Shown here: positions 20,457 to 53,589 of the stretch, piece after piece
Position numbering within the stretch: the first letter of the stretch is position 1
Layout of the letters: each line of letters starts with the position of its first letter
DNA from: Eledone cirrhosa
Lineage: Eukaryota
DNA length: 64,000 nt
Reading direction: 5' to 3'
NCBI GenBank assembly: GCA_964016885.1
Contig: OZ024745.1
Coordinates: 46,562,001-46,626,000 of the forward strand
Position numbers and translations under genes: made by a program
Notes under the pieces: generated by a model
What the model was told of the DNA's origin: nothing
Seen by the model: only the letters and a program-made list of their open reading frames with translations
Database searches by the model: none

Positions 20457-20461
<5 letters not shown>

Positions 20462-20567
20462 AACCAGTAAGACCCCGACAGCTGAGCTCAAGCCGTTTCG
20501 ACGGCTAATTCAGAATTAGCCGTCGAAACGGCTTGAGCTCAGCTGTCGGGGTCTTACTGGTTCCTAT
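20457..20567. repeat. Perfect palindrome, 55-bp arms, 1-nt centre; right arm carries the GAAA-stemIII-GUC half of a hammerhead
   Basis: Arms are exact reverse complements around A20512. GAAA at 20525-28; stem ACGGCT/AGCTGT; GTC at 20545-47. Confidence 0.9.
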
Positions 20568-20643
20568 TACCCACTCTACTACCCCAAGTATTGAGTACTT
20601 TGGTGCGTTATGGTCCACCTGGTTCCTTACCACATTTCCTTCG

Positions 20644-20700
<57 letters not shown>

Positions 20701-20851
20701 CATATATATATACGCATATATATGTACATATATATATATACATACATATATATATATATATACATACATATATATATACATATATATAAATACACATATA
20801 TATATAAACATTTATATATATATATATGCATACATATATATATGCATACGT

Positions 20852-20942
<91 letters not shown>

Positions 20943-20943
20943 G

Positions 20944-22074
20944 ATCATCATCATCATCATCATCAACGTTTAACGTCCGTGCTCCATGCTTGCATGGGTT
21001 TGGACGGGGGTTTTCCCACTTGAGGCAAGAGTGGTTGTCTTGCTCGCATAGGACTGTCTGGCGGGTTTTCTACAGCTGGATGCCCTTCCTAACACCAACC
21101 ACATTTACAGTGTGGGGCTGGGAGGTTTTTACCATGTTGCCTACACGGCCACATTACAGCGTGGACTGTCTGGCAGGTTTTCTACAGCTGGATGCCCTTC
21201 CTGACACCAACCACATTTACAGTGTGGGGCTGGGAGGTTTTTACCATGTTGCCTACACGGCCACATTACAGCGTGGACTGTGTGTTTTTTGTCGTGACAC
21301 CTACACGATCTCATTTGTTTCGGCCTGGATGTTGTGGCACCAACATAACTTTACATTGAAGGGGCGGTGTGGATGGGGTGGGTGGTGGTGGTGGGACGGG
21401 GGTGTATTTTGTTAGAGATGCCTACTGGCTGTAGTAGGTTTTACTTTGTATTTAGGTAAGGCGGGTCTTCTCTATTACTGAGTACCGCCAAAGGTCTCGG
21501 TCCAGTGACATTGTCTTGGAGAGGTGTAAGTGTGTGAGGTCGGAATTTATCAGCTCGTCCCAGATTTTTCTGGGTCTGCCTACTCCGTAGCTACTGTCTA
21601 TCTTTATTGCCCTGCACTTTGTTATACAGTTGTCGTCTTTCATGCGCATCACGTGACTATACCAACGTAGCCTTCTCTCGAGTAAACAACATCTCATCCC
21701 TCTTATTTCTAATTTTTTCCTTAGTTCGCTTATGCTTTGCCGTTCACGTATGTTACTATTACACATCCAGCGGAGCATGCAAGCTTCGTTCCTCTCCAGT
21801 CTGCGTATATCCTCTGCACGCAATGTCCAGGTCTTACTGCCATGTAACATTGCTGTTCGTATGCAGGCATCATACAACCTGCCTTTCATTTTTAGGGAGA
21901 ACCCTTTAGCGGCTAATAGTGGTATAAGCTCTCTGAACTTTTTCCAACCAGTTCTGACTCTAGCTACTGTACTTTCAGAGCACCCTCCCCCACTGCTGAT
22001 TTTGTCGTCCAGGTAACGGAAGCTGTCCACTATTTCTATAGAACCCTCTGCGCAATTGAAAGAGCTAGTATTTT
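20944..22074 (-). mobile_element. RTE LINE 3' portion, left member of an inverted pair, with a 112-bp tandem duplication in the 3'UTR
   Basis: ORF 21452-22030 (SFRYL..., ERRLRWYSHVMR, GVGRPRK); GGACTG anchors at 21051, 21163 and 21275. Confidence 0.92.
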
Positions 22075-22124
22075 ATAGATATATATACATATATATATAT
22101 ACATATATATATATACATATATAT

Positions 22125-22161
<37 letters not shown>

Positions 22162-22163
<2 letters not shown>

Positions 22164-23387
22164 AGTTCTAGTTTGTAAGAAAGAAAATAAGGCGGCAGCC
22201 CCTTCCGGGAAGTGGCCATGCTCAGTGTGTAGGAAAGGCGTAGGTAGAAACTCCATTTTGTGTCCCAAATGCAAAGTATGGGTGCATAAAAGATGTAGTG
22301 GGATCACAGGTAAGCTAACTAAGAACATAGATTTTACATGTGGCCGGTGCTCTGGTGCAATAAGTAGCAGCAAGTTCCCACAAAATACTAGCTCTTTCAA
22401 CTGCGCAGAGTGTCCTATAGAAATAGTGGACAGCTTCCGTTACCTGGGTGACAAAATCAGCAGTGGGGGAGGGTGCTCTGAAAGTACAGTAGCTAGAGTC
22501 AGAACTGGATGGAAAAAGTTCAGAGAGCTTATACCACTATTAGCCGCTAAAGGGTTCTCCCTAAAAATGAAAGGCAAGTTGTATGATGCCTGCATACGAA
22601 CAGCAATGTTACATGGCAGTAAGACCTGGACATTGTGTGCAGAGGATATACGCAGACTAGAGAGGAACGAAGCTTGCATGCTCCGCTGGATGTGTAATAG
22701 AAACATACGTGAACGGCAAAGCATAAACGAACTAAGGAAAAAATTAGAAATAAGAGGGATCAGATGTTGTTTACTCGAGAGAAGGCTACGTTGGTATGGT
22801 CACGTGATGCGCATGAAAGACGATAGCTGCATAACAAAGTGCAGGGCAATAAAGATAGACGGTAGCCACGGAGTAGGCAGACCCAGAAAAACCTGGGACG
22901 AGCTGATAAATTCCGACCTCACACACTTACACCTCTCCAAGACAATGTCACTGGACCGAGACCTTTGGCAGTACTCAGTAATAGAGAAGACCCGCCTTAC
23001 CTAAATACAAAGTAAAACCTACTACAGTCAATAGGCATCTCTAACAAAATACACCCCCGTCCCACCACCCCCACCCCATCCACACCGCCCCTTTCAATGT
23101 AAAGTTATGTTGGTGCCACAACATCCAGGCCGAAACAAATGAGATCGTGTAGGTGTCGCGACAAAAAAACACACAGTCCACGCTGTAATGTGGCCGTGTA
23201 GGTAACACGGTAAAAACCTCCCAGTCCACACTGTAAACGTGGTTGGTGTTAGGAAGGGCATCCAGCCGTAGAAAACCCTTCAGACAGTCCTATACGAGCA
23301 AGACAACCAATCTTGCCTCAAGTGGAAAAATTCCCGTCCAAACCCATGCTAGCGTGGAAGATGGACATTAAACGATGATGATGATGA

Positions 23388-23390
<3 letters not shown>
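22162..23390 (+). mobile_element. RTE LINE 3' portion, right member, including C4HC3 PHD-like finger; (TGA)n tail
   Basis: ORF 22225-23004: CSVC..CPKC.VWVHKRC..CGRC, then SFRYLGD, LHGSKTW, RRLRWYGHVMR, GRPRKTW. Confidence 0.93.
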
Positions 23391-23424
<34 letters not shown>

Positions 23425-23470
23425 CATATATATATATAACCATATATATATATATATATATACACATATC

Positions 23471-23536
<66 letters not shown>

Positions 23537-23660
23537 CATATGTAGGAGGTGAGTTTTATTGTAGTACAATAAAGCAATGCAGATATCGGATAAGAAGCAC
23601 TCTACAGTTTGTAGGACTGGAGTATACATAATATATAAGATCAAAAGATGGTTAAAAGAG

Positions 23661-23742
23661 TTCCATGTATTTTATTATGCGCATTTCAAAAACAAATATC
23701 ATCATGCAATAACATTTGTGTTTTCATCAGATAAAATAGGAA
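23661..23742 (-). ncRNA. Type I hammerhead ribozyme motif (left arm; fully palindromic stem III ATGCGCAT)
   Basis: Minus strand reads TTCC-TATTTTAT-CTGATGA-[36-nt stem II hairpin]-GAAA-TGCGCA-TA^-ATAAAATA-CAT-GGAA. Confidence 0.85.
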
Positions 23743-23860
23743 GACATGATATGAAGGTTAAAAAACACTTGTGAATAGTGCAGTTTTAAATCAACATATC
23801 ATGATATGTTGATTTAAAACTGCACTATTCACAAGTGTTTTTTAACCTTCATATCATGTC

Positions 23861-23942
23861 TTCCTATTTTATCTGATGAAAACACAAATGTTATTGCATG
23901 ATGATATTTGTTTTTGAAATGTGCATAATAAAATACATGGAA
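23861..23942 (+). ncRNA. Type I hammerhead ribozyme motif (right arm)
   Basis: Stem I TATTTTAT (23865-72)/ATAAAATA (23928-35), extended by TTCC/GGAA past a CAT bulge; CTGATGA 23873-79; stem II 23880-915; GAAA 23916-19; stem III ATGTGCAT; predicted cleavage after A23927. Confidence 0.85.
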
Positions 23943-23983
23943 CTCTTTTAACCATCTTTTGATCTTATATATTAGATATATAC

Positions 23984-24044
<61 letters not shown>

Positions 24045-24052
24045 CATATATA

Positions 24053-24093
<41 letters not shown>

Positions 24094-24110
24094 ATATACA
24101 TACATATATA

Positions 24111-24172
<62 letters not shown>

Positions 24173-24195
24173 CCTATATATATATTTATATATAT

Positions 24196-24226
<31 letters not shown>

Positions 24227-24241
24227 CATACATATATATAC

Positions 24242-24274
<33 letters not shown>

Positions 24275-24287
24275 CATATATATATAT

Positions 24288-24612
24288 GGAGGCACATGGC
24301 TTAGTGGCCTTGCAATCGAAAGGTTGTGAGTTCAATTCTCAGACCGGGTGACGTGTTGTTTCCTTGAGCAAGACACTTTATTTCACATTGCTCCAGTTTA
24401 CTCAGCTGTAGAAATGAGATGATAGGGACTTGGGTCCCTATCATTCCACTGCAAAGTGATCGTGCTGGTGCCATGGCAAAAAGCACCCAGCACTCACTGT
24501 AAATGAGGTTGGTGCTAGGAAGGGCATCCAGCTGTAGAAATCAAGCCAGAATCAGTTCCTGTCCCACCCTTGCAAGCAGGGAAAAGCGGACGTAAAATGA
24601 AAATGAAAATGA
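24288..24612 (+). mobile_element. SINE family A (tRNA head, Nin/Deu-like core, RTE-derived tail)
   Basis: Near-identical to 37502, 44097, 54613(-) and 56631; small deletion in the head; tail (AAAATG)n. Confidence 0.9.
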
Positions 24613-25417
24613 AAATATATACATATATATATACATATATATATACATATATATATATACACATATATATATATATATATATACACATATATATATATAT
24701 ACATACCTATATATATATAAACATATATACATATATTATACACACATATATATATATATGTATAGAGGCATGTGGCCTAGTGGTAAGGATGTTGGACTTA
24801 TGATCATAATGTCATGGATTTGATTCTTGGGTTGTGTCCTGAGAAAAACACTTCATTTCACGTTGCCCCAGTATACTCAGCTGAAAATAACCCTGCGATG
24901 GACTGAAGTCTTGTCCAGGGGGAGTCTTGTACTCTCAACTGCTTCACACCATAAGCACCGGCCAAATGAGCCTTCTGGCTTAAGACAGACTTTAGACTTT
25001 TTTTTAGATACATATATATATATATACACACACACACATATCTATATATACACATACATATATATAAATACATATATATGCATGAGCAAACAAAGGCAGA
25101 GACAAGAAGAAATAAATAAATTAATTAAATAAAAATGGCGTAGGCATTACAATACAATGGGAGGAAACATAATAGTACCATTGATGATGTCACAGATGTG
25201 TGACGAAAGAACTTTGATAGACTATATATATCTGTATTTTTAACCGTTGGTCAATCAATAATAAACATTGATTGCCAGATAAATTAACTATGGAGATATA
25301 AAAGATGCAGAAGCGAAAATCAATCCAAACCAAACTCAGTGTGTTGTTATTATTTCTGGCTATATTATAACAATATGACCCTCCCCAAGTATAACAACAT
25401 ATATATATATATATATA

Positions 25418-25461
<44 letters not shown>

Positions 25462-25532
25462 CATATCATCATCATCATCATCATCGTTCTATGTCCATTT
25501 TGCACCCCACAAAAAAAAAACGGTGATGACGA

Positions 25533-25573
<41 letters not shown>

Positions 25574-28500
25574 TATATATATATCATCATTTTATATACA
25601 TACATACACATAATGTATGCATATGCAAATATATGTACATTTTTCAGTATGATTAGCAGTGATGGAAATATGGGGAGTACTCAAAGGTATATATTGGTAC
25701 ACAATTTCAAGTTATTTTATATATATCTACTAATGGAGATATTTACTATTAGCAATCCTTTGTCAAGTTTCAGTCAATAAAAATGTTTGTTTACTATCAT
25801 TACACGTGTTTATTTTATTCAGCTCCCAAAATAGAACACATAATATAGATTAGTTTATAACATAATCTATACAGTAAGAATGGCACTATATTTTGGTTGG
25901 AGTGTTATGGGTATCCCACGACCATCACGTGCACAGGTTCATATTTCTGCACTCTGATGGACCCTTCTATGATTCTCAGAATAAATTCTAGATACAGTCT
26001 TACCATATAACTAGTTTCCAATACCCACTGTAAATGTGGTTGGTGTTAGGTAGGCCAAATATTCAGACCCGTCAGAGCAAGATACAGTGTGGCCAATTCT
26101 GGCCAGACTTGTCTCTCGATGTGGGTGACCCATCTAACCCATGCAAGCATGGAAAAATGGATGCTAAACGGTGATGGTGATGATTATGACTTCCATCACT
26201 GATGATAAGTCCTTCCTAAGCTTACAATTATATTTCCATAAAATCAGTTAGATGCTTTCTGTGATAGCTATACCCAGAGTAGGAATGGAACTAATGTTCT
26301 GTTGCCACAGCTAACAGCAATGATTTGTTCCTATCTTATGTAGTACCTATATCTATTTAGATGTTTATTGAACCTTTAGCTATTTAAGTGTCTAGGCCAT
26401 GATCACAACATAGTGCTCATAACAGAATACCAACTAACAAGCTTTCAGCTAATTGTTTGGTACTTAAAACTTAAATATCTACTTCAAATAATGTATTAAC
26501 AGAAGTGAAACTTCAGTGACAGCCGACATAAACCCTGAAATCTACTTTTCTTGGATCAATAAAGTAACTTCCTGCAGTGTTCGGGGATTAATCTCTCATT
26601 GTAGGGTATATTGAACAAGATAGCAAGATGTTATCAGTTCAAACAACTGATGCCACTATTTTCAACCTTTTACCATACAATGCCATTTCATATTTTTCAT
26701 TTATTATATGAATGGACTCTTGGTGATGTAGCAACACTTTCAAATCTATCAGAGCTCATCCTTCTTCAGGTTTAATCACAGCCAATTTCTTCTAAAGAAG
26801 AAGAGAGAGTAATAGAGAGGAAGTGAGAAAGAGATATAGAGGAAGAGTCAACCTTAGTACTGGGCTGGTACTTTATTTATTAACCTCAAAAGAATGAAAA
26901 GCAAAGTTAACCTCAGTGCACGGAGAGCCAGAACAAATATGGCAAAGCATTTTATCTGATGTTCCAATGACTCTGCCCATTTGCCATTTACCATTTATTA
27001 AATAGTAGGATCAAATGTATTGTAGTTAGCTGTACTGTTCATTTGTTGTCAGCTCTGTTGTGTGGCCCTAGGTCAGTTCCAATCATTCAGATCTACAATC
27101 CATAGAAGGTCAGTTGAACAATGCAATCTAATTCACAGGTCCATTTTGCTGAGCAGAAAGCCTTGCCATTCACTCAAACATGCAGTTGGTTGGAGTTGTG
27201 CATTTTGTTGTTGTTTAGCTTCATATTAATAAAACATCTACCAGTCAAGTATTGTTCCTGCCACCACCAAAAGAAATTTTGGTCTTGTGCATTATTTAAA
27301 GAAATTTGATATACAAATATAGACAAATTCATGATCAGAGAGTCTATATCTTGCATTAAATAAATACTATTTAAGATCAATAATAATACTTGGTTTGTAA
27401 CAGATGTTGTTCTGACATGAACTTCACAAGAAACGTGTTACCATAGAAAGAATTTCTCTCTATACCAGTATAAAACCAAACAGTATTTAGATTCTGTCTA
27501 ACTGCTTACTCAGTGATGCAAATAATACAGGTATAGGCAACACAATTTTAAAGAAACCAATAAGTTTGTTAATAACCTCTTAGGTCGATTCAAAGCTGAG
27601 TTGCTATATATAGAATAGAAAATGCCATGAATTCTGGAAAATTCTGTTTCTGTTTAAACTTCAAAGATGCAGACAGTAGCAAGCATACAGAAATTGCAGG
27701 AAATATATTCAAAGAAAAGCATGAACATTTCTTATATTGTTGCACTTTTCAGTATCTATGTTTACATGCAAATAGGTATCATCATCATCATCATTATTAT
27801 CATCATTGCTTTCTTCTTTCTTGTTCTGCTCTTAACCCTTTCATTACTCTATTTCTAATGAAATGTACTACCTATGATTTTCAAATACTTTGACCTTGTT
27901 ATGTATGTATGGACCATTACCCCTTATGTCAGTTTGCTCTGCAACTCTACAGTGATTTTACAATTTTGGGTGTGAGTGGGTGGAAGGGGGTATTTTGTTC
28001 AAGGGGTTTCTGATGCCCCTTTTAAGCAGAAGTGCATGGCCTAGTGGTGTTGGACTGGGTTGTGTGTTGTGTTTTTGAGCAAAACACTTAATTTCATATT
28101 GCTCTAGTATATTCAGCTGAAAATAAGTACTAGCAATATCTGGGGGATTAACCCTAGTAGGGAGACTTGTACTCTCAGTCACTTAACACCACAGAAATTT
28201 GGATAAGCACCAAGCTGTGGAAAAGTACATGAAATGATAAACAGTAACTGTGATAACAAATGACAAACCTACAGCAAAGACTTAACTCTAACCCTGTCAC
28301 CACAAGTTAAAGACAGACCAGCAACTAATCACCATCATAGTTGACAGCACATGTAAATAACATAGTGAAAGTAACACAATTATAGTTGAAAATTGCTAAA
28401 ATGCCTGAACACTTTTGATACGAAACCGAAACCACCTGAAACTGCCCTTAGTTCTATGATACAAAACTATTTGCTTTAAAATATTTATATTCATCTAAAA

Positions 28501-28737
28501 CCTTCCATCATGATTTTATGTAAAAACCCGCTAACAGCTTAATGGGAAAATTAGTTATATTACTAAATCCTTCCTAATTCATATTTTTAACTGTTTACTT
28601 TAAAATGTTTATATTTATCTAAAGAAAAAAGAGAACATCTATCATAATTTTATGTAAAATCTTTTGTTAAATTATGTTCCAAATACTAGTTTAATAACCA
28701 GAAAGTTATATTACTAAATCCTTTCTAATCCTTGACT

Positions 28738-29545: not shown

Positions 29546-29611
<66 letters not shown>

Positions 29612-29629
29612 CATATATAATATATATAT

Positions 29630-32793: not shown

Positions 32794-35029
32794 GTTCTGG
32801 GATTTGATACTCTATTTCCAAATACTTATAGTTATTAACTGCAATTGAAACTAACAAGTCAATTCACATGCATTTCTCCCAGAACAAACACTGATTAGTA
32901 TAGAATTGCATCATTCATTACTACAATTTGTTTATGTATTTTCTTATGAATTAATACTTGGAATAGTTCTCTTCAATTAATTATGATTATTTATCATCCT
33001 GCTAATGATTCTGGTGAATGAACTAGAATAATTACTAAGTATTTGTTAAATACAAGTTCTAACTGGGGAATTACTTTAAAAATATTAAAATGATTGTATT
33101 TTAATTTGTTAGTAATTACATTGAATTATTTGCTACTACACTACTATGAACATTTTATGACCATTTTCCTGCTAAAGCAGAGGTTAGCCCAATGATAGGC
33201 TTTATACTCATCATGGGTCCTTTTTCAGGCAATGTTTTACAGCCAGATGTCCTTTTTGGTGCCAACTCTTTTAGCCATTATCATAATCATTTAATATCTG
33301 TTTTCCCTGCTAGCAAGACTTGGATTTGTTGTGACAGACCAGTCAGTACTCAAAACAGGATCTCTGACCTCCAGTTGAACTGAATGCCCAAGATATGATC
33401 CTATGTTATATTACATACATTTTATTATGGCACCAACACTAGAGAAGTTGTCATGTGCTTGTCATAGCTGAAGAGTTTTCCCAACTCTTTGTTAGGCAGG
33501 GTTTTTTTAATAACAGAATGCCCTTCTTATTTCCAACCACTTTACCAAATGCACTGGGTGATTGTTTATCCCCAGAGAGGTTGTCATATACATGGCACAG
33601 CCAAAGAGTCCTCCAAACCCTTTGTTTGGCAAATCATCTACAGTGGGCTGCCAATCATATTGCCCACTACCTTACAGGATGTACTGAGTGCATTTATCAT
33701 GGCATCATCACTAGAGCCATATCACCCTATTCTAAACTGGATACACAAGGTATATTGTATACACAGATATGTTGTTTATTGTGTGAAGTTCAGTGCAGCA
33801 ATCTGCTGGGTTTTTTCCACTATACAGTCTCTTCTTGATGCTTATAGGTTCAGAAAGTGACTACAGTGATTGAAACATGACAGTTGTAATTCTGTTCTCA
33901 TCTCTATTTGTGTGCATCTCAGCAGAGTGTTGTGACTTGCTTCTGTTTTTGTGTGTCTAGTTACCACTATCATTTTACGTATAGATTGGTAGGGGCCATT
34001 ATGGACCAAGTCAGTACTTAACTAGAACTATTATCCTCACAGACAGGTCAGAGTCAATGTCTCACTTAGTATGTTTCATTTTCACATCTATGGCTAGATG
34101 CCCTTCCTAACACCAACCACTTTACAGAGAGTACTGGGTGTATTTAATCATGATGCCAGCACCAAAAAAATATTGTTAGTTGTGATGTTCATATTTGATG
34201 TTCTTTAAAGTTGTTAGTTACTAAGAGAGATTATCTATTTGGTAGTTGACATTTGTTTGTTGATAGTGCTTTTAGGTGGTTGATGAAGGTTCAGAGTTGT
34301 TATGCAGCTAGCTATGTCTGTAAAATGGTAGGATGAGGAATCAAATGTGAAGTTATTTGTATATTAGTCTGTGCATGTATTATGTGGTTTTGAGGGATTT
34401 TTATATAATTTATACGTTGAAATAGAGTGGCCACTCCATTTGGGAAATTACAAATTCTAGATATGCTGTTGCATTTCTCTAAATAGGCTAGCTGACCCCA
34501 AGAGATATTTACCAGCCAGTATTTTTGTTTTGTTTCTTGACAAAGTGTTTAGCATTTTATTTATGAGTAGTGGGGTGGTGAGTTGACAGCTTTACTGATG
34601 TCAATGGTAATTAGAATGTTGTTGATGAAGCTGTTATCTGTTTTTATGTGAGCTTTGTGAATAGTCTTTTTAACCCTTTCATTACCATATCTATATATAA
34701 TGACAGATATTTATTGGTTGGTTGGGGTCTTCGAGCATCACACAAAAACAAAAACTGACAATTGAAAAGTAAGTACACCAATGGAATAAGGGTATACCTC
34801 GGAAGGTTTATTGATACTCACTTTATAAAATTAAAGAAGAAGAAAAACATCCCGGGTATACTAACCAACCCAACTGCTCTTTCTAGCAGGTTGGGAGACA
34901 ACCATAAGAGATTCTCTCTGTGCGTCTGTTGTCAGCAAAGCTCGTGTTTCATGGCCAGTGTCTCTGTGGATTTGAATGCTTGTTTATGCACACACACACA
35001 TAATTTTATATAATTATTTACATCTATGT

Positions 35030-35440
35030 CTATATATAATATTAACAATTGGAACTCCCATCATCCTTTTAAGAAACTTGGACCCACCACATCTATGCAA
35101 TGGCATGCACTTTACAATTAGACAGATAATGAACCATCTCCTAGAGGTCACTAACTATTCTTGGAGGCAATCATCAAGGAGAAAATGCATTTATTCCCAA
35201 GATTCCCCTCAACCCTTTCACTATTTAAGACTTTAGTTCCCTGTTAGAACCAGTTTTGCTATGACCATAAATAAAGTTCAGGGTCAGAGTCTCAAAGTTG
35301 TAGGATTGAATATGAGAGAATTGGAATTTATCGATGGACAGTTATATGTATATTGTTCCTGAATGCAAACTCCTAGAAATCTTCATATACTACACACGAA
35401 CAGTAAAACAAAGAATCTGGTGTATCTGGAAGATTTTTTA
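35030..35440 (+). pseudogene. Helitron PIF1-like helicase C-terminal remnant
   Basis: GTPIILLRNLDPPHLCNG; then across frameshifts AFIPKIPL and FPVRTSFAMTINKVQGQSLKVVGL...GQLYV (PIF1-family helicase C-terminal motifs). Confidence 0.85.
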
Positions 35441-36260: not shown

Positions 36261-37389
36261 TTTAAAGGAACTAAAGAAGGAAAAAAGATGATGATGGCAA
36301 GCTGTGTTTGAGGTTGTTCTTAGTTTTTATTCAGGTCACTATTTCAGTTATGCAGTTCAGCTCTATATTTTTATGCCGTCTCATGGGATGTGTTTCGGGA
36401 GATATTTCAGCAATTGGATTTTTGAATATTTGCATTGTTATAATGATGATGATGATGATGATGATGACAATGATGATGATGATCCATATTGATGTAGTTT
36501 GTTGAATACTGAGATTCTTGTTTTTGGAAGAAGTGATTCCACTGGGCTATTTAAAAAAAAAATATTGTGACTATATTTCTAACAAATAAACTGCCTATGT
36601 GGTTCAACTAATATTCAATATATTTAAGATTTTGGAGAAATTTAGTAAAGTGCCTGTCATTCATTTTTAAGAGTGAGATTTGATAGCTGTTTCTAGCAGG
36701 TTGAGGCTGTCATAGGAAACGATTATATTTCTTTGTTGATCTGAGAATGTATTCTAAATACTACATTTCAATATTAAACTAAGAAAAAATATAGAACAGA
36801 AGTGGAATTAATTTCCAAGTTCTAGATGTTTATTTTATTTTTATTTGAGTGAAAATTGTAAACAAAATTGCTTGGATATAAAAACAATTAATATACAGTT
36901 ATTTGAAAAACAAAATATAGCTTCAAGATACTGAATCAGTTCCGTTTTGATAATAGCAAAGAAAAAAACCCATGAAATAAATAACATGGTGATATTTGCA
37001 TTCGATCGTCGTCATCATCATCATCATTATCATCATCACAACCATCACCACAATCATCATCATCATCAATCTACATTCATTTTCCCCAAGTTAGCATGGG
37101 TTGAAGGAGTCTTTTTGACATGGAATTTTATGATTGGATGCCCTTCCTGATGGCAACTCTTGAATATTTTTCTGACTGAGTAAATTTAATAAACAGAAAC
37201 TAGGAGTAGGCCTGTTATACATATATATATATATACTTATATGTCATCACCATCATTGTTTAAGGTCCATCTTCCACGCTAGCATGGGTTAGACGGTCTT
37301 TTTCCATTTGATGCGGGAATGGCCGGGAGACCGTGTCTCGCTCGTATGGAAGTGTCTCTGGCAGGTTTTTTACGGCTGAATGCCCTTCC

Positions 37390-37441: not shown

Positions 37442-37501
37442 ACACACACACACACACACATACATACACATATATATATATATACATATATATATATAGA
37501 T

Positions 37502-37842
37502 GGAGGCACATGGCTTAGTGGTTAGAGCATTGGCCTTGCAATTGAAAGGTTGTGAGTTAAATTCTTAGACCGGGTGATGTGTTGTTTCCTTGAGCAAGAC
37601 ACTTTATTTCACATTGCTCCAGTTTACTCAGCTGTAGAAATGAGATGATAGGGACTGGGTTCCCTATCATTCCACTGCAAAGTGGTCGTGGAGGTGCCAC
37701 GGCAAAAAAGCACCCAGCACTCACTGTAAATGAGGTTGGTGTTAGGAAGGGCATCCAGCTGTAGAAATCAAGCCAGAATCAGTTCCCGTCCCACCCTTGC
37801 AAGCAGGGAAAAGGGGGACGTAAAATGATGATGATGATGATG
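37502..37842 (+). mobile_element. SINE family A, full-length
   Basis: Complete head, core and RTE-like tail ending in (TGA)n; TA-rich flanks. Confidence 0.92.
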
Positions 37843-37858
37843 ATATATATATATATAG

Positions 37859-38290
37859 CAGTAAGGAGGACACCAAGCTGTGAAAACAATTGCCTCCTTA
37901 TTAAAAAGAGAAAATGAATAAGCATCTTACTTATGTTGACATGAAAATATGAATGTAAAATATTTAAAGAACCCTACTTAGTTTCTATTCCACTGTGGGA
38001 CATCAATAGAAAGAAACTGGGAGTAAGCCTGTTATATTTACATATATATACATGCACACACACATACACCCACATTATATATAATGTGTGTGTGCATGTA
38101 TATATATGTAAATATAACAGGCTTACTCCCAGTTTCTTTCTATTGATGTCCCACAGTGGGATAGAAACTAAGTAGGGTTCTTTAAATATTTTACATTCAT
38201 ATTTTCATGTCAACATAAGTAAGATGCTTATTCATTTTCTCTTTTTAATAAGGAGGCAATTGTTTTCACAGCTTGGTGTCCTCCTTACTG
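37859..38290. repeat. Long inverted repeat, 207-bp arms, 18-nt loop
   Basis: 37859-38065 is the reverse complement of 38084-38290 with one mismatch seen (37989/38160); the left arm starts just after a (TA)n tract. Confidence 0.93.
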
Positions 38291-38797: not shown

Positions 38798-38895
38798 TCA
38801 TTTATGGCATTTATAGTCCTTTCTCCTACTTTCCTATACAGTCAGATCTGACTGTATAGGAAAGTAGGAGAAAGGACTATAAATGCCATAAATGA
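38798..38895. repeat. Perfect spacerless 98-bp palindrome
   Basis: 49-bp arms centred on AGA|TCT (38846/38847). Confidence 0.95.
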
Positions 38896-41524: not shown

Positions 41525-42035
41525 GAAACAATGTATCGAAAGAATACCAAACATAGAGCGCCTTCCTTTCCTGGGCATGGATACATTGGGGCTCCGACGC
41601 CTGGCGACTGACTTGGTGGACACCCACAAAATTGTTGACCATCTTGCCAACAACGAGCCTGAGTGCCTTTTTGATTTCCATGTGTCTGGCACACGTGGGC
41701 ATGCCCACAGGGTCAGAGGGCAGCACAGTTCTCATGGCTTTTGGGGACATTTTTTCACGCTCAGAGTTGCTGAAGCATGGAACAAACTACCTGCATCAGT
41801 TGTTAGCTGTCGAGACACTGCATCCTTTAAAACCTCCATGCTTCCCGAGATTTGCCAACACTACACCTAATGTTCCCCCTCCATACACATACACACATGT
41901 ATATCATGACTCATACACTATTCACTTCCCTGACATTTGTATATTATTCTATGTACTATACATGCACCTTTGACGAGTTGTAGCGCACCTGAGCACTTTA
42001 CACAATAATTTCATTATTATTATTATCATTATTAT
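41525..42035 (+). mobile_element. CR1 3' fragment, same family as 14001
   Basis: ORF 41499-41870 ends FFTLRVAEAWNKLPASVVSC...; same UTR and (TTA)n tail. Confidence 0.92.
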
Positions 42036-42965
42036 ATGATTCCCTGTTTTCTCTTTCTTCATGTGTAGTTTAGTTCTGGGTCAGCTCTGATTCAGCAAAC
42101 TTATGGTCAAAGGCATTCCAGTCACAACTCTTCTAACATACTATTCTTACTTTACTGTTTAATAGTTGGTGGGTTTCATTAACCTTTTTGTGACCATATT
42201 TTTTTATGAAATACACTATCTCAATTATTTAATGAAGAATTTTGAGGCATTTGCTAAAACTGTTATTTCATTACTAAGACAGTAACTTAATATATGATAC
42301 TTATATAAAATGTTAGAAGAGTTTGATTTAAAAGGTGGTATTGTTTCATAGAACCTAAGCTGGTTTGGACTGGCTGGTGTCATGTTAAAACACCCACTCC
42401 AATAATTTATGCAAATGTCTATCATGTAAATTGAACTGAATTTAACCAAAGCTATCACATAGAAATCTGCTGTTAAATGAGTCAATAGCAATATACATTT
42501 TCTTTTAATCAACAATTAAATAAATAAATAAATAACAATAATGTTAAATGGTTGTAATGATTTCCCACAGTTGCACATGTCCACCCATGGTAGGGGAGGT
42601 AGATAGTGTGGAGTGGTTGGGGAGCAATTCACACAGATGTGTGAATTTGAGGGGGCAACACTGTCCAACATTTAATTCTTTTACTCAGTTGTATTCGTTG
42701 TAAGTACATCATGTATGTATACTCCCATTATCCATACATTGATTATGTTTATTTACCATTGGCTACTAAAATTATTAATGAGGAGTTTGAAATGGAATCT
42801 CCATTTCACATTTGGCCTGAGCTTATTACCAGATTCAGAGCCTACATTTTACATTTGGCCTGGACTTGTTATGGGTTTTGCATGGGCCTATGAGTAAGCA
42901 AGCGAGTGAGTGCGTGAGTGAGTGAGGAAGCAAGTATGCAAGCAAATATATCTGACTATCTATCT

Positions 42966-44509
42966 ATCTTCCTTTGGAAGAAACGGGCTCCTTTGGTGAG
43001 AAGATCCGTCTGCTGCCAACACCCTTCAAACGGAGGGCTGGGGATGCCGTGGCTGACGATGCGCAAACACGCGCTCAGGCTGCGGCACCTCCACGTATTC
43101 CTCACCAGACAACCAGTGTGGGCCCCGTTCGTGAGGCGAGCCTTCCCACGACTCGTCTCGCTGACCGAGCTGCAGTCCTGGGTCAAGCAAAGACCGAGGA
43201 AAATGGGCGACTGGCACATCGAATGTGCTCAGGCACTCACAGTCCTCTGGCAAACGGACCCGGCGATCAGTGGAGACTCCACTTCGACATTCTATAGAAG
43301 GTTGGTCTGCAGCAAGTGCGACGACACGCTCGGAGAAACTCTAGGCGTAGAGGAGGACAAAGTGGCCAGTCTGTTCGGTAGGACCTTCCACCCGGGACCA
43401 ATGGACAACTTCCAAAAGTCCCTGGCCTGGCAGTGCTACCGAGGAGCTCTACCAGTTCGAGACAAGATCTACAGACACGGGCGCCCGAGTAGGGAACCTT
43501 CGAAAAAGATCTGTCCGAGATGGGTGCACGACGAGGAAACCGTCGCGCACGTATTTGTACACTGCCCGGGCATTACTGACCTGTGGGGCTATGTAGAACG
43601 ACTATTGTCACGGGTGGGACCAATCCAGTTGACCACCGAGTCCATTGTCATGATCAAACCGCCACCCTCCTTCAAAAACGAGGGAGAGGCGGTTTTCCTA
43701 TGTATTATGGCTATGGTGAAAGAGGTTATATGGTGGACGAGGTTAAAAGGGCTGAGGTCAGACACCTTTCTCTCTGGCGAGCAACTGATTTGTTTTTTCA
43801 AATATCATTTTGGAAGAAGAATCAGGATGGAGAGAGAGGTGCTGTACCCCAGCAAATTTTATAAAAGGTGGGTGACTGTGGCAAAGATGGCCCAATTAGT
43901 TGGGCCTTCTCTCTATATAAGCCTGTAGGTTGAGGAAAAAGAGGAAGAGAGGAAGGGAGTACTCACTCTTAGTGCTCCTGGAGATGAGGGTTGTACATTT
44001 TTTCGGGGTGTGTACAACCCCTGTGTAACACCTCCCCCCTATTGGGGATATCAATTGTTATTTGTTATTTTATTAATAGTTTTATTTTCATATAAAGGAG
44101 GCACATGGCTTAGTGGTTAGAGCATTGGTCTTGCAATCGAAAGGTTGTGAGTTCAATTCTCAGACCAGGTGATGTGTTGTTTCCTTGAGCAAGACACTTT
44201 ATTTCACTTTGCTCCAGTTTACTCAGGTGTAGAAATGAGATGATAGGGACTGGTGTCCATATCATTCCACTGTAAAGTGGTCGTGGAGGTGCCACGGCAA
44301 AAAAGCACCCAGCACTCACTGTAAATGAGGTTGGTGTTAGGAAGGGCATCCAGCTGTAGAAATCAAGCCAGTATCAGTTGCCGTCCCACCCTTGCAAGCA
44401 GGGAAAAAGCGGACGTAAAATGAAATGATGAAATGAAATGATACCTGTATGTAAACTCCCCATTTGTATTTGTCCCCTTCTTTTGTGCCCTTGTGGCTAA
44501 TAAAAAAAT
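42966..44509 (+). mobile_element. Tx1/L1-like LINE 3' portion with zinc-knuckle region, flanked by (TATC)n; SINE nested in the 3'UTR
   Basis: ORF 42918-43928 has GGLGMP, LPVRDK, CPR...ETVAHVFVHC. AATAAA/polyA at ~44499-44508. TATCTATCT on both flanks. Confidence 0.85.
44097..44441 (+). mobile_element. SINE family A nested in the Tx1 3'UTR
   Basis: Near-identical to 37502-37842. Confidence 0.92.
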
Positions 44510-44625: not shown

Positions 44626-45722
44626 TCTATAAAAGGCAGATTGTTGTAGTTATGTGTGTGTGTGTGTGTGTGCATGTTCCATGTTTATACATTTGCACAA
44701 TTTCAAACCGATTCGACTCAAAGTCTGTATGAATGTTGTAAATGGTCTAACTTAGGTCAACGACTATTTATTTCATTCAAACTCACCCACAATTATGGAA
44801 ATAATCGATAAAACTAAATACATGACGCTTTACCCCTAATAGAATCTGATACCTCTCTCTACTCCCCTTCAAATTCAATAAAACTACATACATGCTTACA
44901 AACTTCCTTTAGGAACGCTGAAGAGAGAGAGGGGAGAGAGAGATAGAACGTTTGTTTTTGAGTGTGGAACGGTCAAACATTTATTTACTTCAATGACAAA
45001 GAGAACTTATTACATTTCATACGAAACAACAATTATTCAAAAGCAACAGATAAATTTATTCAACAACAAAAAAATAGCGTTAAAACTTTTTAAAAACCTC
45101 TCAACGAACGTGAAAGAAAGAAGTATCAGTTTATTTACTATACACAATAATATACTCTATGAGGTCACTAAACCTGCTAGAAACAGCAGCTAACTCTCCC
45201 CCCTATCACACCACTCCCTACTGTTTTAAATTTAGAAAACATATCCTCTATGAGGTCACTAAACCTGCTAGAAACAGCAGCTGTCTCTCCCCCACATCAC
45301 ACCCCTCCCTACTGTCTTAAATTTAGAAAACACATATCCTCTATGAGGTCACTAAACCTGCTAAAAACAGCAGCTAACTCTCCTCCATATCACACCCCTC
45401 CCTACTGTCTTAAATTTAGAAAACACACATTAGACAACCATGCAGAACAACTCCATCGCAGTTCTGTTGTTCGGCTGGCATCGTCTACGCGCATGTTTTG
45501 CAAGTACTGTGAAACAATAAATTTCAAAACTTCTTTGCACAGAGATAATATCCATAGGCGAAACTACAATTGTCACTGCTGGCGCAGCTCCTGCTTCGCA
45601 GTCCAGGTCTGCAATTCATTCACCCAGTGCCTGGCAGACAAAAAAGTGCTGCCATAAAATGGGTGGTGCAACCTAACTTTGGTAACTTACTGACCTCGAC
45701 CAACGCCGGGCTTTAATGCTAG
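44626..45722 (+). mobile_element. Non-autonomous Helitron (A|TC ... hairpin-CTAG|T)
   Basis: Begins TC after A44625; ends CTCGACCAACGCCGGG (imperfect hairpin) + CTTTAATG + CTAG, followed by T. Confidence 0.65.
45155..45430. repeat. Three tandem 91-93-bp units inside the Helitron
   Basis: CTCTATGAGGTCACTAAACCTGCTA starts at 45155, 45246 and 45339. Confidence 0.92.
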
Positions 45723-47589: not shown

Positions 47590-47855
47590 ATCCCTGTGTG
47601 AATCATGTGTGTCCGGGACACATTTGATAGTGTTATCAAATCCAGCCCCACAGAGTGAAGCATTATAGTGGTCTGTGTGTTCTTTAAAAGTGTTATGGGT
47701 CTTTGAAAGTCTGGAGATCTTTAGAGATATACCTTTCACAATACAGTTAATAATGTATTTGTGTAATTCTGGTAATCGATAGATTTATGAATAGTAGCAA
47801 TATCTAAGAGTTATTCTTTAGGCTGTTGATAAAATTTACCAGATATACTAACAGG
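47590..47855 (-). pseudogene. Penelope-like element RT C-terminal (thumb-region) remnant
   Basis: IVKGISLKISRLSKTHNTFKEHTDHYNASLCGAGF resembles the PLE pattern I..RL..LS....F......Y...L...GY. Confidence 0.55.
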
Positions 47856-48639: not shown

Positions 48640-49990
48640 AGATATTCCTATATTTTTTGTTCTATCTTGTGCTTATTTTGGAGTCGGGATGTAAACCCTG
48701 GATGTCCTTGCAGGATAAAAGATGAATGCCATCTGCAACAAAAATGTAATTCCAGGTTGAACATGTATGAAGCTACCATTACTCCAGTTACAACCAACTA
48801 TACATTGAGCAGAAAAGGATATGTGGGTATGACACACAACTGGTTTAAACAATTGACACAGATTGTGTCTTTCAAACACCAAGATATGAAGATGACTATG
48901 GCACTGGTAAATTGAGTATGGAAACTGAAGGATAAAGGGGTACCATGCACGATTAAATGGAACATCCTTGATAAATCATTGTTCTAATATTAAAGGAACA
49001 ATGAGGTGTTCACTTTGCCTAAATGAAAAATTAAGGATATTACAGCATCTGAAATCATCTGATAAATACCTAAACACAAAACATGAGCAATTTAGAGGAT
49101 GCCCACACATAAGATCACATATCCTTTCAGCATGGCAGCATATAAGCTCAGAGACACAAAACACAACTATCTTACACTCAGCTTAGTTCACTAAATCGGT
49201 CTCTGTATCCAAACATGATTAAATACAATCAGCTACATAACTAATGTACATGTAAATAACAAATATATCTTTATCAAAACACATATAAGACTCCACCTTA
49301 ATATAAGTTAAATACAACAACCTTATAAATAATATACACATACAAGTACATTGCATATACATACTTAACAACATACTTAACACACTTTCACTACAATAAT
49401 CCATATAATTATACATAGAAAAAACAAAAACACACATACATACACACAATACAGATACTTTAACAATTACATTAAAATATATAAACTTACAGGCACAGGA
49501 GCTACTCACCCTGAATAACAAAACACCAAATTTTTTGTTACATTATTATTACCTCCCTTGCACTTGAAGAAATCTCATGTATGAATTAATATCGGCCATC
49601 TTGGTATTGCCTGAAAGATAAGCAACACTAGCATATACAATGTCTCTATGACCTATGCTAAAGTAGGTTTTGAAACCTGAGACAGCATAAAACTCGGTTG
49701 ACAAATTATTTATATTTTAGCTCTGTACTTAACATGGAGCACTCTATTTCCTTTATCTAATCTACAGAAACTCTTGACACTACACTTTCAAATAACATCA
49801 AAGCCGGTCTGTCTCCCTATCAATATGCTGTAGTGTCTTAGAAACAGATTACATTATTAAGAGGCTGACTGAAGACGTTATGCCAGGAATTGTGTTATAG
49901 CATCATGACATAATGGCATCACAGAAGTGTGTATTACGATTAATTATGTAATAACAGAAATTATGTAATCTAGTCGTCGCATCTTATTAT
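48640..49990 (+). mobile_element. Penelope-like element 3' part: Cys-preceded GIY-YIG endonuclease remnant plus 3' region ending in (TA)n
   Basis: CPCRIKDECHLQQKC...MYEATI...GYVGMT...FK...SFKH...WKLKDKG...IKW...RCSLCLNEKLRI...YLN...CPH, across frameshifts. Confidence 0.8.
49863..49975 (+). ncRNA. Hammerhead-like motif with expanded stem II at the PLE 3' end
   Basis: GGCT(G)A-CTGAAGA (49869-75)-81-nt stem II closed by GTTAT/ATAAC-GAAA (49957-60)-near-palindromic ATTATGTAAT-C^-TAGTC. Confidence 0.55.
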
Positions 49991-51269
49991 ATATATATAT
50001 ATGTGTGTGTGTGTGTGCATATATATATATATATATATATGCACATACACATACAAACATGAAAGTTACATCAATTGTATATGTGCAAGATGTATGAATA
50101 TGTGTATAAGAGCCAAACCATGAACAGATATTTAGTTTTGGTCCTGCTTATGTGTGTGTGTTTTATAAACAGCAATATTCAGAAACTCAAACACAGAGTG
50201 AAAATATGCACCAAAATTTCAAATGTTCTCTGTTTTGTTATAAATCTGTCAGTTTTAAGTGGTTTCCTGCTTTCTTCCTTTTGGACTCAGAAAACAGTAA
50301 TCTGTAGATCACAGCTTACTTCAACATCTCTTATCATCAACGTTCATATAAATTTGGAGTTACACTTATTTTACAGGGGGTAATGAAATAATAGTAACAA
50401 ACACCCGTCTAACCCATGCTAGCGGGGAAGATGGACGTTAAACGATGATGATGATGATGATGATGATGAAACAAAATAGTCCCAAATATAGCTTTATATA
50501 CATACATATACATGCACATACAACCCCTCCCCCCAAAACACACATGCACACAGGCAGATATATATGCTAACACATACACACATAGATATATACTCACAGA
50601 GATTTTAAATTGTTGTCTAACCCATGCAAGTATGGGAAAGCCAGAATAAAAGCAATGATGATGATATGTTCCATTTTTTAAATGTCTAAGCTTATTCGTT
50701 TAAATTTTAATCTTCTGTCCTCACAAACTAAAAATTTCAACAACAAAAAATTCTTTACATTATTTCATTTGCTCTATAAAACACTCCGTTAAATAAAGTT
50801 AAATAGAAAAAGTTTAATTTTGATATGTGTATTAGTCAAGATATTAGTCAAATACTACACCTAGTTTCATTATGGTGAGTGCAATTATGTAAAATACTGC
50901 TTACTTTCATCATTATTGCCTTGGGAAAAACATGATCTTCACAAAGCAATTTTCCTTCTCCACTAAATCTGAGATTTCATTGTTGGAACCTTATTTCAAT
51001 TTTCTGGATTCAATGAAATAAGTACTTGGGTTAATTTAACCATTTATTACTCTCCACTCCTTAAAAATGGATGGCCTTGTATTTATGTTGGAAATAAGAA
51101 TAACGACAACTGTAATAATAATTGTTTTTATCATAAGCAAAAGTTTAATTAATTCAATCCCATATCTTAAAAACAGAAAATAGTTTTGTTTTCTTTATGT
51201 TTTGTAGCTACTTTTGCAAGTTTTCATTATTCTTCATTAGATATTTTTGTAATTTTATATTAGTTTGTA

Positions 51270-51780
51270 TAAATTCCCTGCCTCCTTTGTGGTAAATATA
51301 TTTCTGCATCATATTTTGGGTAGTGAGTCCTAAATGCAGTTTTCATCAGTTCATTTTGTGTCCAATTGAGGATGTTATAAACGTAATTTACAACTGGAAC
51401 AGATATGGTATTAATAACTATTACTCCATTTTTTTTTCATTTAACTGTTTTAAATATTAATTTAATGCATCAATAAAATTCCTTCCTAATTTTTTCTTTT
51501 ATTTTTGTGTATTGTGCATTGTCGAATTCATTGATTCAAATGTATTCATATTTCTGTGTTTGCTGTAATTCTCTTATCTATTTCTTTATCTGACATGATA
51601 AAAGTGTTCTTAATTAATTTTCCTCTCTTCACGGTTGCCTTGGTGCATATTTCTAATCAGAATTTTACATCATTTTATCTAGTAAGTCCATGTACCATCT
51701 GAAACATTGTTTCAAGTTGTTTATCATTTGCAGGCTTGAGATTGTCTTTATACAAATGAAGCTCAATTGTCCTACAACAG
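51270..51780 (-). mobile_element. R4/Dong-like RT fragment, degenerate
   Basis: KQLETMFQMVH...CTKATVKRGKL...KEKIRKEFY...INTISVPVVNY..NILNWTQNEL. Confidence 0.65.
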
Positions 51781-51949
51781 CATTTGTATCCTAGTCCAGT
51801 CTTGTTTAATATGTCATTTCAAAGTTTTAGCACTATGCAGAAAAGGAGTGGGGAGAGAGAGAGAGAGAGGAAGTCCTATTCCTATTCTAATCTTTGTGTT
51901 GTCATTGTCATCATCCTCATCACCAACACCCTATCATTGCTGTTATTTT

Positions 51950-52495
51950 TTTTTATTGCGTATTATTACTGCATTACTGTGTGCCTTGAGTATGTGCAGT
52001 GTTGTTATTTTTATTGTATTAAGAATACTCTTTATAATATGTGTGCAGGGCCTAGTAAAGGTATTTTCTGTATACTGTATATGTTTGTAAGTCCTGGGAT
52101 TTTGGTTATGTATCTATCTGTGTGTTTTTTTTATCATTCCCAGAGCAACTATTATCATAGGGATTATTTCTGTTTTCATCATCCACATTTGGGTTATTTC
52201 TCCATTTCCTTGCTGGCTATATTGTCATCTGTAGGGGCAGGCACATCAATTAGAAGACATTTTTTTTGTGATCTTTGACTATAATATCAGGTTATTTGGC
52301 ATTGATCTCCTTGTCTGTGTAGTGGCATATCCCAGAATATGGTTGCTTTGTCATCCTCTGACACCATTTCTGGTGTATGTTTGTACTACTTTTTTTCTGT
52401 TGGTATTTCATAGTGTTGGCATAACTTCCAGTGTATGTAAATCCTAACTCTATAATGACCGGATATGTTCTTTTGGGGCTAAAACTGGGCATCTA
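51950..52495 (-). mobile_element. R4/Dong-like restriction-like endonuclease C-terminal fragment
   Basis: TDKEINAK.PDIIVKDH...LIDV..PTDDNIASKEMEK...KKHTDRYITKIPG...IQKI.LLG.AHIL.RV. Confidence 0.7.
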
Positions 52496-52609
52496 GAGAT
52501 AATGTAGTTAAAATGTGTTTGTGTGTAAGTCCCTGTCTGTGATTATGTGTGTGTCAGTGTCCTGTAACTTAGCAATCTTACAAAAAAAGAACCAGACTTG
52601 AAAGATGTA

Positions 52610-53262
52610 AATGCTGCAGTCAATATGATCAACATTCCCCACTCTTCCATATTGCTGGCCTTGTGCCAAAATCAGAAACCATTATTATTATTATTATTAT
52701 CATTATTAAGATTAGCAGTATCAGTAGAGTGTTGGAGAACATGCTTTGCAGCATAAAGTTACGTCCCTTTACATTCTGAGTTCAAATCCCACCGAGGTTA
52801 GCTTTGCCTTTCATTCTTTTGAAGTTGATAAAATAAAGTACCAGCAATGCACTGGGATCGATTTAATCGACTTTTCCCTTCCTTTCAAATTGCTGGCCTT
52901 GTGCTAAATGAAGAGACCATTATTATTATTATTTGGGGTCAATAAAATAAAGTACTAGTAATGCAATGGGGTCGATTGATCGACTTTCCTATCCCCCAAA
53001 ATTGTTGGCCCTGTACCTAAATCAGAAAGCATTATTATCATTATTAAGATTGGCAGTATAGGTAGAGTGTCGGACAACATGCTTTGCAGTATAGAGTTAC
53101 GGCCCTTCACATTTTGAGTTCAAATCTGGCTGAGGTTAGCTTTGCCTTTCATCCTTATGGAGTTGATAAAATAAAGCACCAGTGATGCACTGGGATCAAT
53201 TTAATTGACTTTTCCTTCTCCCCAAATTGTTGACCTTGCGCCTAAATCAGAAACCATTATTA
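52610..53262 (+). mobile_element. Tandem cluster of SINE family B copies (two near-full, two partial) joined by (TTA)n tails
   Basis: Heads at ~52710 and ~53048; repeated TTGCTGGCCTTGTGC..AAATCAGAAACCATTATTA ends. Confidence 0.8.
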
Positions 53263-53392
53263 AGAAAGTCATTGCATGGAAAAGCAAACATACAATGATG
53301 ATGATGCTGGGTGCAGAAGATAGATGGCTGAATTAAATGCTTTATAATATGTAATTTTAATGTTGTCTCGTTTTTCTAAATTCAAATTACAC

Positions 53393-53589
53393 TGATGTTG
53401 TTTTGTTAAATTAATAGATCAAATCCTGCTTCTGGTACACTTATCTATATAAGTGTGTGTGTTTGTGACTGTGTACGTGTGTTTGTGTATATGTGTGTAT
53501 GTATGTCTGTATATGTATATGTGTATGCATGTGTGTTATGGGAGTACCAGAAGCAGGATTTGATCTATTAATTTAACAAAACAACATCA
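53393..53589. repeat. Perfect 46-bp inverted repeat with 105-bp TG-rich spacer
   Basis: 53393-53438 is the reverse complement of 53544-53589. Confidence 0.92.

Follow-up and report, generated by a model that had tools for sequence, protein, structure and literature searches.

What made the fold-back palindromes that crowd a short part of the genome of the octopod Eledone cirrhosa? The DNA in question is a 64,000-nt stretch of contig OZ024745.1 (positions 46,562,001 to 46,626,000 of the forward strand), hereafter the window, which is N-free, has a GC content of 36% and holds five nearly perfect inverted repeats between positions 20457 and 53589. A preliminary description had tentatively ascribed them to one recurrent process, either inverted insertion of the type known for Penelope-like elements (PLEs) or template switching at (TA)n. 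The arm lengths and mismatch counts given there were confirmed exactly, and the five repeats, P1–P5, are as follows.

20457–20511 and 20513–20567: P1 arms, 55 bp, no mismatches, spacer 1
23629–23801 and 23802–23974: P2 arms, 173 bp, one mismatch, spacer 0
37859–38065 and 38084–38290: P3 arms, 207 bp, one mismatch, spacer 18
38798–38846 and 38847–38895: P4 arms, 49 bp, no mismatches, spacer 0
53393–53438 and 53544–53589: P5 arms, 46 bp, no mismatches, spacer 105

The palindromes are mostly explained by known mechanisms, which are of at least two kinds: PLE-like ends lying in TA repeats, and recent fold-back copies of host DNA. The single process proposed at first thus divides, in that PLE-type inverted insertion fits P1 and P2 and template switching or fold-back fits P3–P5, while an inverted pair of long interspersed nuclear elements (LINEs) that had been counted in with them falls outside it.

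With spacers of up to 600 allowed, an ungapped inverted-repeat scan of the entire masked window yielded six matches, namely P1–P5 and the LINE pair, and the same scan gave zero matches in 20 of 20 shuffled windows. Three weaker palindromes found by a gapped scan (58179–58274, 59178–59224 and 63730–63762) exceed the best of ten shuffles (44.6 bits), and another, at 18301–18398, was seen in a self-comparison of the window. The first two are older and decayed (fold z of −5.4 and −4.7, respectively); 58179–58274 adjoins AT-rich sequence, and its minus strand bears a CTGAAGA box, without a full hammerhead. At 63730–63762 a short interspersed nuclear element (SINE) copy has an 11-bp stretch perfectly complementary to the sequence just upstream, which may be a quasi-palindrome correction. 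The arms of P1–P5 differ at two of 530 sites (0.38%, interval 0.05–1.4%), compared with 3.4–5.8% among young SINE copies (ten pairs), so that their description as recent stands.

The outer end lies 0 nt from the nearest (TA)5 or longer run in P1, 2 nt in P3 and 10 nt in P2; the distance to a TA run is 31 nt for P5, which lies within a degenerate TG/TA tract, and P4 has no (TA)4 closer than 691 nt. The earlier count of three palindromes with an arm at (TA)n is thus sensitive to the threshold: it is three of five in four of nine settings and two of five in the other five. Measured against random placement, TA adjacency has P = 0.0015 to 0.035, depending on the setting, under a null that ignores the clustering of the TA arrays in one 8-kb region. 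This region, to which 1447 of the 1760 TA-array bases belong (17.3–25.6 kb), also contains P1 and P2.

17387–25584 (no strand): cluster of TA arrays, 19 of the 32 in the window, separated by pieces of LINE, SINE and PLE-like sequence

Some or all of the palindromes could in principle be sequencing or assembly artefacts from polymerase fold-back at TA tracts, as might be supposed from the identical arms of P1, P4 and P5, from the three palindromes that touch TA arrays and from the difficulty that complex PLE insertions are reported to cause in assemblies (PMC8557442). We consider this very improbable: the arms of P2 and P3 each differ by one transition, that of P2 at a CpG, and the decayed palindromes at 18301–18398 (fold z of −12.0), 58179–58274 and 59178–59224 are not expected of artefacts. 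Every event, moreover, needs two switches and returns to the forward sequence, and the window is free of N and has long LINE open reading frames (ORFs) in frame.

P1 has one relative in the window, an older one 2 kb away, and the two are best described together.

20460–20644 (+): P1, a PLE-like fragment between two (TA)n arrays, with inverted arm 20457–20511, template arm 20513–20567 and a 77-nt tail, 20568–20644
20500–20547 (+): half hammerhead of P1; helix II at the palindrome centre, then GAAA, a 6-bp helix III with a palindromic loop, and GTC
18238–18398 (−): relative of P1, older, which has a decayed palindrome of its own (self-inverted match 75%, E = 1.7e-10; fold z of −12.0) and ends in a TA tract

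P1 lacks the CUGANGA box, whose place is taken by the inverted copy. Arm and tail of P1 are homologous to 18238–18330 on the minus strand (70%, E = 1e-8), and this relative folds back in the region of helix II of P1. The two share arm and tail, yet the left arm of each mirrors its own right arm; the inversion was therefore made twice at the same place. The observed/expected (o/e) CpG ratio is 0.76 in P1 versus 0.19 in the relative, and the older inversion appears to have persisted and then decayed. That the fold-back arose independently in both insertions, at one and the same hammerhead-like helix, offers a usable clue to the self-priming step of PLEs.

P2 likewise lies between two TA arrays.

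23543–23974 (−): P2, a hammerhead-bearing segment between two (TA)n arrays, with inverted copy 23802–23974, template arm 23629–23801 and an 86-nt tail, 23543–23628
23668–23738 (−): complete type-I hammerhead motif, with core boxes and helices I–III; mirror copy at 23865–23935 (+)

We infer the direction of copying, with 23802–23974 as the copy and 23629–23801 as its template. Helix I of the motif has 8 bp and is followed by CUGAUGA; helix II, bulged and 15 bp long, precedes GAAA, after which come a minimal palindromic helix III and the UA cleavage site. Helices I and II are present in the minimum-energy fold of the motif. A strict descriptor run on both strands of the window finds this motif and its mirror copy only and finds nothing in any of 200 shuffles (0/200), a figure that overstates the significance somewhat, P2 having already been known when the descriptor was set. 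Allowing one core mismatch adds one weak match at 39614, and a loose full-core scan gives eight matches in the window, P2 included. The only arm mismatch falls in loop III of the mirror copy. The palindrome is centred 63 nt 5′ of the motif; the copy ends within TA-rich sequence and does not include the 86-nt tail; in the whole palindrome the hammerhead is buried in a predicted duplex of about −265 kcal/mol. To judge from its sequence, P2 is a hammerhead element resembling a PLE end.

It might instead be an old PLE remnant that was duplicated later at the DNA level in the manner of P3, in which case fold-back at (TA)n would explain P2–P5 and only P1 would be an insertion-time inversion. Both arms of P2 share departures from the hammerhead consensus that resemble CpG decay, namely a U before GAAA and a U–A pair closing helix III, and these departures therefore predate the copy. 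The low GC content of P2 (30%) and its CpG o/e of 0.37 also suit an old remnant, and both histories end in the same sequence. On the other side, a centre 5′ of the hammerhead and a copy without the 3′ tail are what is seen in P1, in the 18.3-kb element and in published inversions of the pseudo-long terminal repeats (pLTRs) of PLEs. The CpG count of P2 fits young and old elements alike (P = 0.27 and 0.19), and PLE hammerheads are described as varying strongly within genomes (PMC4209133). Later duplication of P2 seems to us unlikely.

Are P1 and P2, then, PLE ends? A hammerhead motif is complete in P2, present as its 3′ half in P1 and absent from P3–P5. A head-to-head inverted 5′ copy with a palindromic junction and no 3′ tail is found in P1, P2 and 18238–18398, and the two TA arrays that flank each of P1 and P2 point to a (TA)n target. 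PLEs are described as having inverted 5′-truncated pLTRs, palindromic junctions, optional tails and a proposed self-priming (PMC3846280), hammerheads whose helix II is long and whose helix III is small and palindromic (PMC4209133) and a bias towards (TA)n targets (PMC8557442), with cleavage in vitro at AT-rich sites (PMC11167929). Penelope families are reported to be abundant in coleoids (PMC8967140) and recently active in Octopus vulgaris (PMC13282606). The PLEs with a GIY-YIG endonuclease (EN+; Penelope/Poseidon, Neptune, Nematis and Hydra, whose inverted solo pLTRs contain a hammerhead) share the head-to-head inversion, the palindromic junction and the tail-lacking copy, and have in common with P1 and P2 an AT-rich or (TA)n target and a long helix II with a palindromic helix III (in P2, and half of it in P1). 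Unlike these elements, P1 and its 18.3-kb relative invert inside helix II and so lose the CUGANGA box. Naiad PLEs show the same (TA)n targeting and inverted 5′ copies, but are described as lacking a canonical hammerhead and as having left only old remnants in cephalopods (PMC8557442); P1, by contrast, has a young appearance, and a hammerhead is present in P2. Non-LTR retrozymes are also short non-coding hammerhead units derived from PLE pLTRs (10.64898/2026.07.22.740005); they are reported as monomers or head-to-tail tandems, whereas P2 is a head-to-head pair.

Several results weigh against membership in the PLEs. The half hammerhead of P1 is weak alone: the chance of it is about 1% for a given centre, and its pattern is common in the window (18 observed, null mean 17.1). 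The fold of the P2 hammerhead is no stabler than those of shuffles (z of −1.2), the usual G10.1–C11.1 pair is absent from it, and the CpG count cited above gives no dating. Rfam gave no hammerhead match in the whole window or in targeted rescans of P1 and P2; of the 105 matches that the whole-window search returned at E ≤ 1, almost all were to hairpin-driven microRNA models and lay below their gathering scores. Again unlike EN+ PLEs, no ORF for a PLE reverse transcriptase (RT) or GIY-YIG domain was found by Pfam in 200 ORFs (the window has 306 complex ORFs of at least 50 aa), although solo pLTR fragments need not carry one; a GIY-YIG pattern sought in all six frames gave one unrelated match only. 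A search with the open frame of P1 found no protein relative, which is weak evidence. Tails are 75–86 nt here versus 30–40 nt described for PLEs. P1, its 18.3-kb relative and P2 thus seem to behave like PLE ends, and their membership in the PLEs is not proven.

The three remaining palindromes are of a different kind.

37859–38290 (no strand): P3, an inverted copy (37859–38065) of the adjacent host flank (38084–38290), within a TA array
38798–38895 (no strand): P4, a perfect spacerless 49-bp palindrome with no microsatellite near and no target-site duplication at the arm ends
53393–53589 (no strand): P5, a 46-bp inverted copy (53544–53589) of upstream host DNA 105 nt away, in a degenerate TG/TA microsatellite

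The layout of P3 is (TA)6, the 207-bp inverted flank, a 10-nt slip and a palindrome centred in (TA)4, with its centre and its outer end both in TA runs. Since its 18-nt spacer resolves into the slippage duplicate (10 nt, 38066–38075) and a perfect 18-bp palindrome centred in (TA)4 between 38079 and 38080, P3 is effectively spacerless. The preliminary description spoke of spacerless palindromes, and this applies to P2 and P4 and, in this sense, to P3; it does not apply to P5, with its 105-nt spacer, or to the LINE pair. The inner arm of P3 is 78% similar to a decayed repeat at 37175–37233, and the predicted duplex is about −358 kcal/mol.

The CpG o/e of the template is 0.10 for P3, 0.0 for P4 and 0.22 for P5. 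The three templates hold two CpGs versus 22.2 expected, a depletion with P = 1.7e-4 against LINE-like CpG levels; in this they resemble unique DNA (o/e of 0.12–0.18) and differ from P1 and from the LINEs (0.60–0.62). No hammerhead was found in P3–P5 at up to two core mismatches by a bulge-tolerant scan that recovers P2 and is negative in all seven other regions, and the arms differ at one of 302 sites. Because hammerheads are lacking, the templates are CpG-depleted and the arms are near-identical, we read P3–P5 as copies of host DNA; they appear to be recent fold-back or template-switch duplications of old sequence. In each the insert is the reverse complement of adjacent older sequence, as in template switching or snap-back synthesis. 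Snap-back synthesis in end joining that is synthesis-dependent and microhomology-mediated (SD-MMEJ) is described as giving inverted repeats (PMC9303309), TA repeats are reported to break and to be repaired by microhomology joining via polymerase theta (PMC13645644), and template switches of up to 318 bp are reported from human genomes (10.1101/2021.11.26.470150). With four-point template switching and snap-back SD-MMEJ, P3–P5 share a local inverted copy, two switches and 0–4 nt of microhomology. The human events as published have a mean of 11.56 bp and maxima of 97–180 bp unmasked and 318 bp overall, with low-complexity loci filtered out; P3 is at the long end of these sizes and inside a TA array, and three events of at least 46 bp within 16 kb are dense by comparison with known template switching.

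This origin also has points against it. P4 has no microsatellite; the CpG depletion of P3–P5 reaches only P = 0.05 against the CpG-poor young SINE (o/e of 0.28); polymerase-theta insertions are described as templated within about 50 bp (PMC9303309), which is shorter than P3; and the human–chimpanzee data reported in PMC5453318 show no intra-strand events, so that the fold-back here may be inter-strand.

A further possibility is that the palindromes are MITEs (miniature inverted-repeat transposable elements) or foldback DNA transposons with TA target-site duplications. After small boundary shifts P1, P2 and P3 do have TA at both ends, which is indistinguishable from microhomology, and the arm of P3 starts with CAGT, presumably a resemblance to Tc1 ends. 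Tc1-Mariner and MITE families are reported as active in O. vulgaris (PMC13282606). The homology of P1 to the old element, however, runs on past the arm into the tail, so the end of the arm is not an element end; P2 contains a hammerhead, and P2–P5 have no second copy in the window. The inner arm of P3 is microsatellite and decayed repeat, and in P4 and P5 there is no target-site duplication at the arm ends (a 2-nt match appears only after trimming 4 nt). A transposon of this kind is quite improbable.

The LINE pair had been taken as part of the palindrome process, and its RTE label comes from the preliminary description.

20944–22074 (−): 3′ end of a 5′-truncated LINE, with (GAT)n as its tail and an internal tandem duplication of 112 bp
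22158–23389 (+): second, longer 5′-truncated copy of the same LINE family, inserted into the same TA cluster

The copies align over 914 columns (21163–22074 with 22382–23290) at 95.7% identity, and each has its own tail and TA array. In 109 3′ columns shared with a third copy at 17.4–17.5 kb, the left and third copies agree at nine, the right and third at two, and the left and right at two. A fold-back origin was rejected on this grouping of the left copy with the third (nine columns versus two); the comparison favours two separate insertions. The pair is thus most likely, from its sequence relationships, two independent insertions, with later replacement of the 3′ tip of one copy possible. 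There are five synonymous and 14 non-synonymous differences in 206 codons, which looks neutral and does not discriminate between origins. The second copy includes a LINE ORF fragment (22165–23001, +) with a PHD-type finger (Pfam E = 7.4e-7) downstream of the expected RT position.

Taken together, we favour as the probable account a single fold-back geometry reached by two routes, PLE insertion and host-DNA repair, with the LINE pair separate. It draws on the observed arms and junctions, the hammerhead motif of P2, the homology of P1 to the old element, the CpG states and the three-way LINE comparison; which arm is the copy, the PLE identity, the enzymes and neutrality we infer. In the common geometry a free 3′ DNA end would fold back or switch to the opposite strand, be extended by 46–207 nt on the sequence just behind it and then rejoin the other end, with microhomology for this supplied by a TA tract in three cases. 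On the first route, to which P1, P2 and the older element at 18.3 kb belong, a PLE would insert into (TA)n with its cDNA primed at a TA nick; the cDNA would end at a hairpin or palindrome and prime itself there, this being helix II in P1 and the old element and, in P2, a short palindrome some 60 nt upstream of its hammerhead. The product would be a head-to-head inverted pLTR without the 75–86-nt tail. The second route, that of P3, P5 and P4, would start from a break or a stalled fork within a microsatellite or close to one, and repair would proceed on old host DNA, either by snap-back synthesis or by template switching over a short range. All of the products would be neutral passengers that later decay.

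A stronger version of this account would have an active, genome-wide octopod palindrome generator at (TA)n, in which the PLE nick-and-self-prime step, or the repair that completes it, also copies 50–200 bp of host flank back into the array without an RNA template. The generator would be a main source of the high load that octopus has of near-perfect double-stranded RNA (dsRNA) and of its hyper-editing, while silencing of the hammerhead of the element would be a further effect of the inverted copy. We regard this version as doubtful. Our literature search, most subscription papers being beyond it, found nothing on fold-back palindromes at TA arrays in octopus, and octopus or mollusc was not found in the accessible part of the invertiaDB report (PMC12019632). 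The human genome is reported to have 718 spacerless palindromes longer than 200 bp (PMC7999016), a density of 0.015 per 64 kb that was not used as a test since the window was chosen for its palindromes. If the genome-wide rate of such palindromes is ordinary, the finding is an annotation detail.

The palindromes may nevertheless help to explain the double-strand richness of octopus RNA. On a published metric (PMC5625713; 50-mers with an inverted match of >95% and 40 bp within 2 kb), 252 of 6395 50-mers of the window score, i.e. 3.9e-2, versus the 4.4e-3 reported there genome-wide for O. bimaculoides; the two figures come from different species, assemblies and BLAST versions, and the window had been selected for its palindromes, so that this is not an enrichment test. 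The LINE pair contributes 135 scoring 50-mers, P3 36, TA tracts 32, P2 27, a SINE pair (54633–54937 and 56630–56932) 15, P1 three, and P4 and P5 two each. The inverted LINE and SINE pairs thus give 150 of the 252 versus 70 for P1–P5, which alone reach 1.1e-2; as inverted neighbouring pairs they are of the ordinary class of ADAR substrates and show no difference from it. The window is, on these predictions, rich in dsRNA, in a lineage already known to be so: PMC5625713 describes for O. bimaculoides an exceptionally high fraction of near-perfect-dsRNA loci and very high hyper-editing. The same source names a cause for frog (palindromic Harbinger) and reports heavy editing of lizard Penelope; for octopus no cause was seen in the part of it that was available. 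The window offers three sources of dsRNA that can be counted: the inverted ends of PLEs, copies folded back at TA arrays, and pairs of LINEs or SINEs clustered with TA.

The preliminary description also placed the palindromes, tentatively, within an intron of a minus-strand gene. Two exons of such a gene, similar to FAM81, were found.

8289–8489 (−): last coding exon of the FAM81-like gene; 60 of 67 residues identical to O. sinensis XP_036367353.1; AG acceptor
10543–10650 (−): penultimate exon of the FAM81-like gene; 20 of 36 residues identical; AG/GT sites

Both are spliced and encode the end of the protein, and XP_036367353.1 is the best longer FAM81-like relative, clustering with proteins of O. 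vulgaris and O. bimaculoides. Identity at these levels points to an octopod source, probably other than these three species. The penultimate exon is much more diverged from Octopus (20/36) than the last (60/67). No upstream FAM81 exon was found from 10650 to 64000 by tblastn and profile searches (next-best E = 1.9). The palindromes lie either in an intron of more than 53 kb, which is plausible, or outside the gene. Selection might have kept the hairpins as ADAR substrates or as regulators of the FAM81-like transcript, given the very stable duplexes predicted on either strand in P2 and P3 and the very high hyper-editing in octopus. Against this, none of the palindromes comes closer than 9.8 kb to an exon that was found, the older ones decay unhindered, youth accounts for the near-identity of the arms and there is no A-to-G bias between the LINE arms (nine versus six); selection is hardly credible.

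Repeats make up much of the rest of the window, 35% of which has matches elsewhere within it. A near-intact LINE at 14168–17002 (−) encodes an endonuclease (539 aa) and an RT (405 aa) in one frame with a single stop between them, and its 3′ fragments are found at 18701–19202 and 41545–42034. The 3′ part of another LINE is present as a GC-rich 336-aa ORF with a zf-RVT match (42918–43925, +), and a fragment of a Pif1 helicase 2B domain (34976–35359, +; E = 2e-6) is probably a Helitron remnant. The young SINE is tRNA-headed, with five copies 3.4–5.8% apart (24288–24612, 37494–37847, 44090–44431, 54610–54964 and 56630–56971); its 3′ part resembles the 3′ untranslated region of the LINE pair, which suggests a LINE–SINE partnership. 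An unclassified family of about 390 bp has three copies, 19380–19760 (−), 55820–56230 (+) and 56345–56630 (+), that share the same end at a (TA)n array; two of them are CpG-rich (o/e of 0.73 and 0.99), and neither a stable fold nor a hammerhead was found in the family. Finally, local direct tandem duplications occur at 21051–21281 (112-bp unit), 45150–45427 (93 bp), 3405–3569 (31 bp) and 52828–53045 (112 bp), so that the frequent local copying in the window is of both kinds, direct and inverted.

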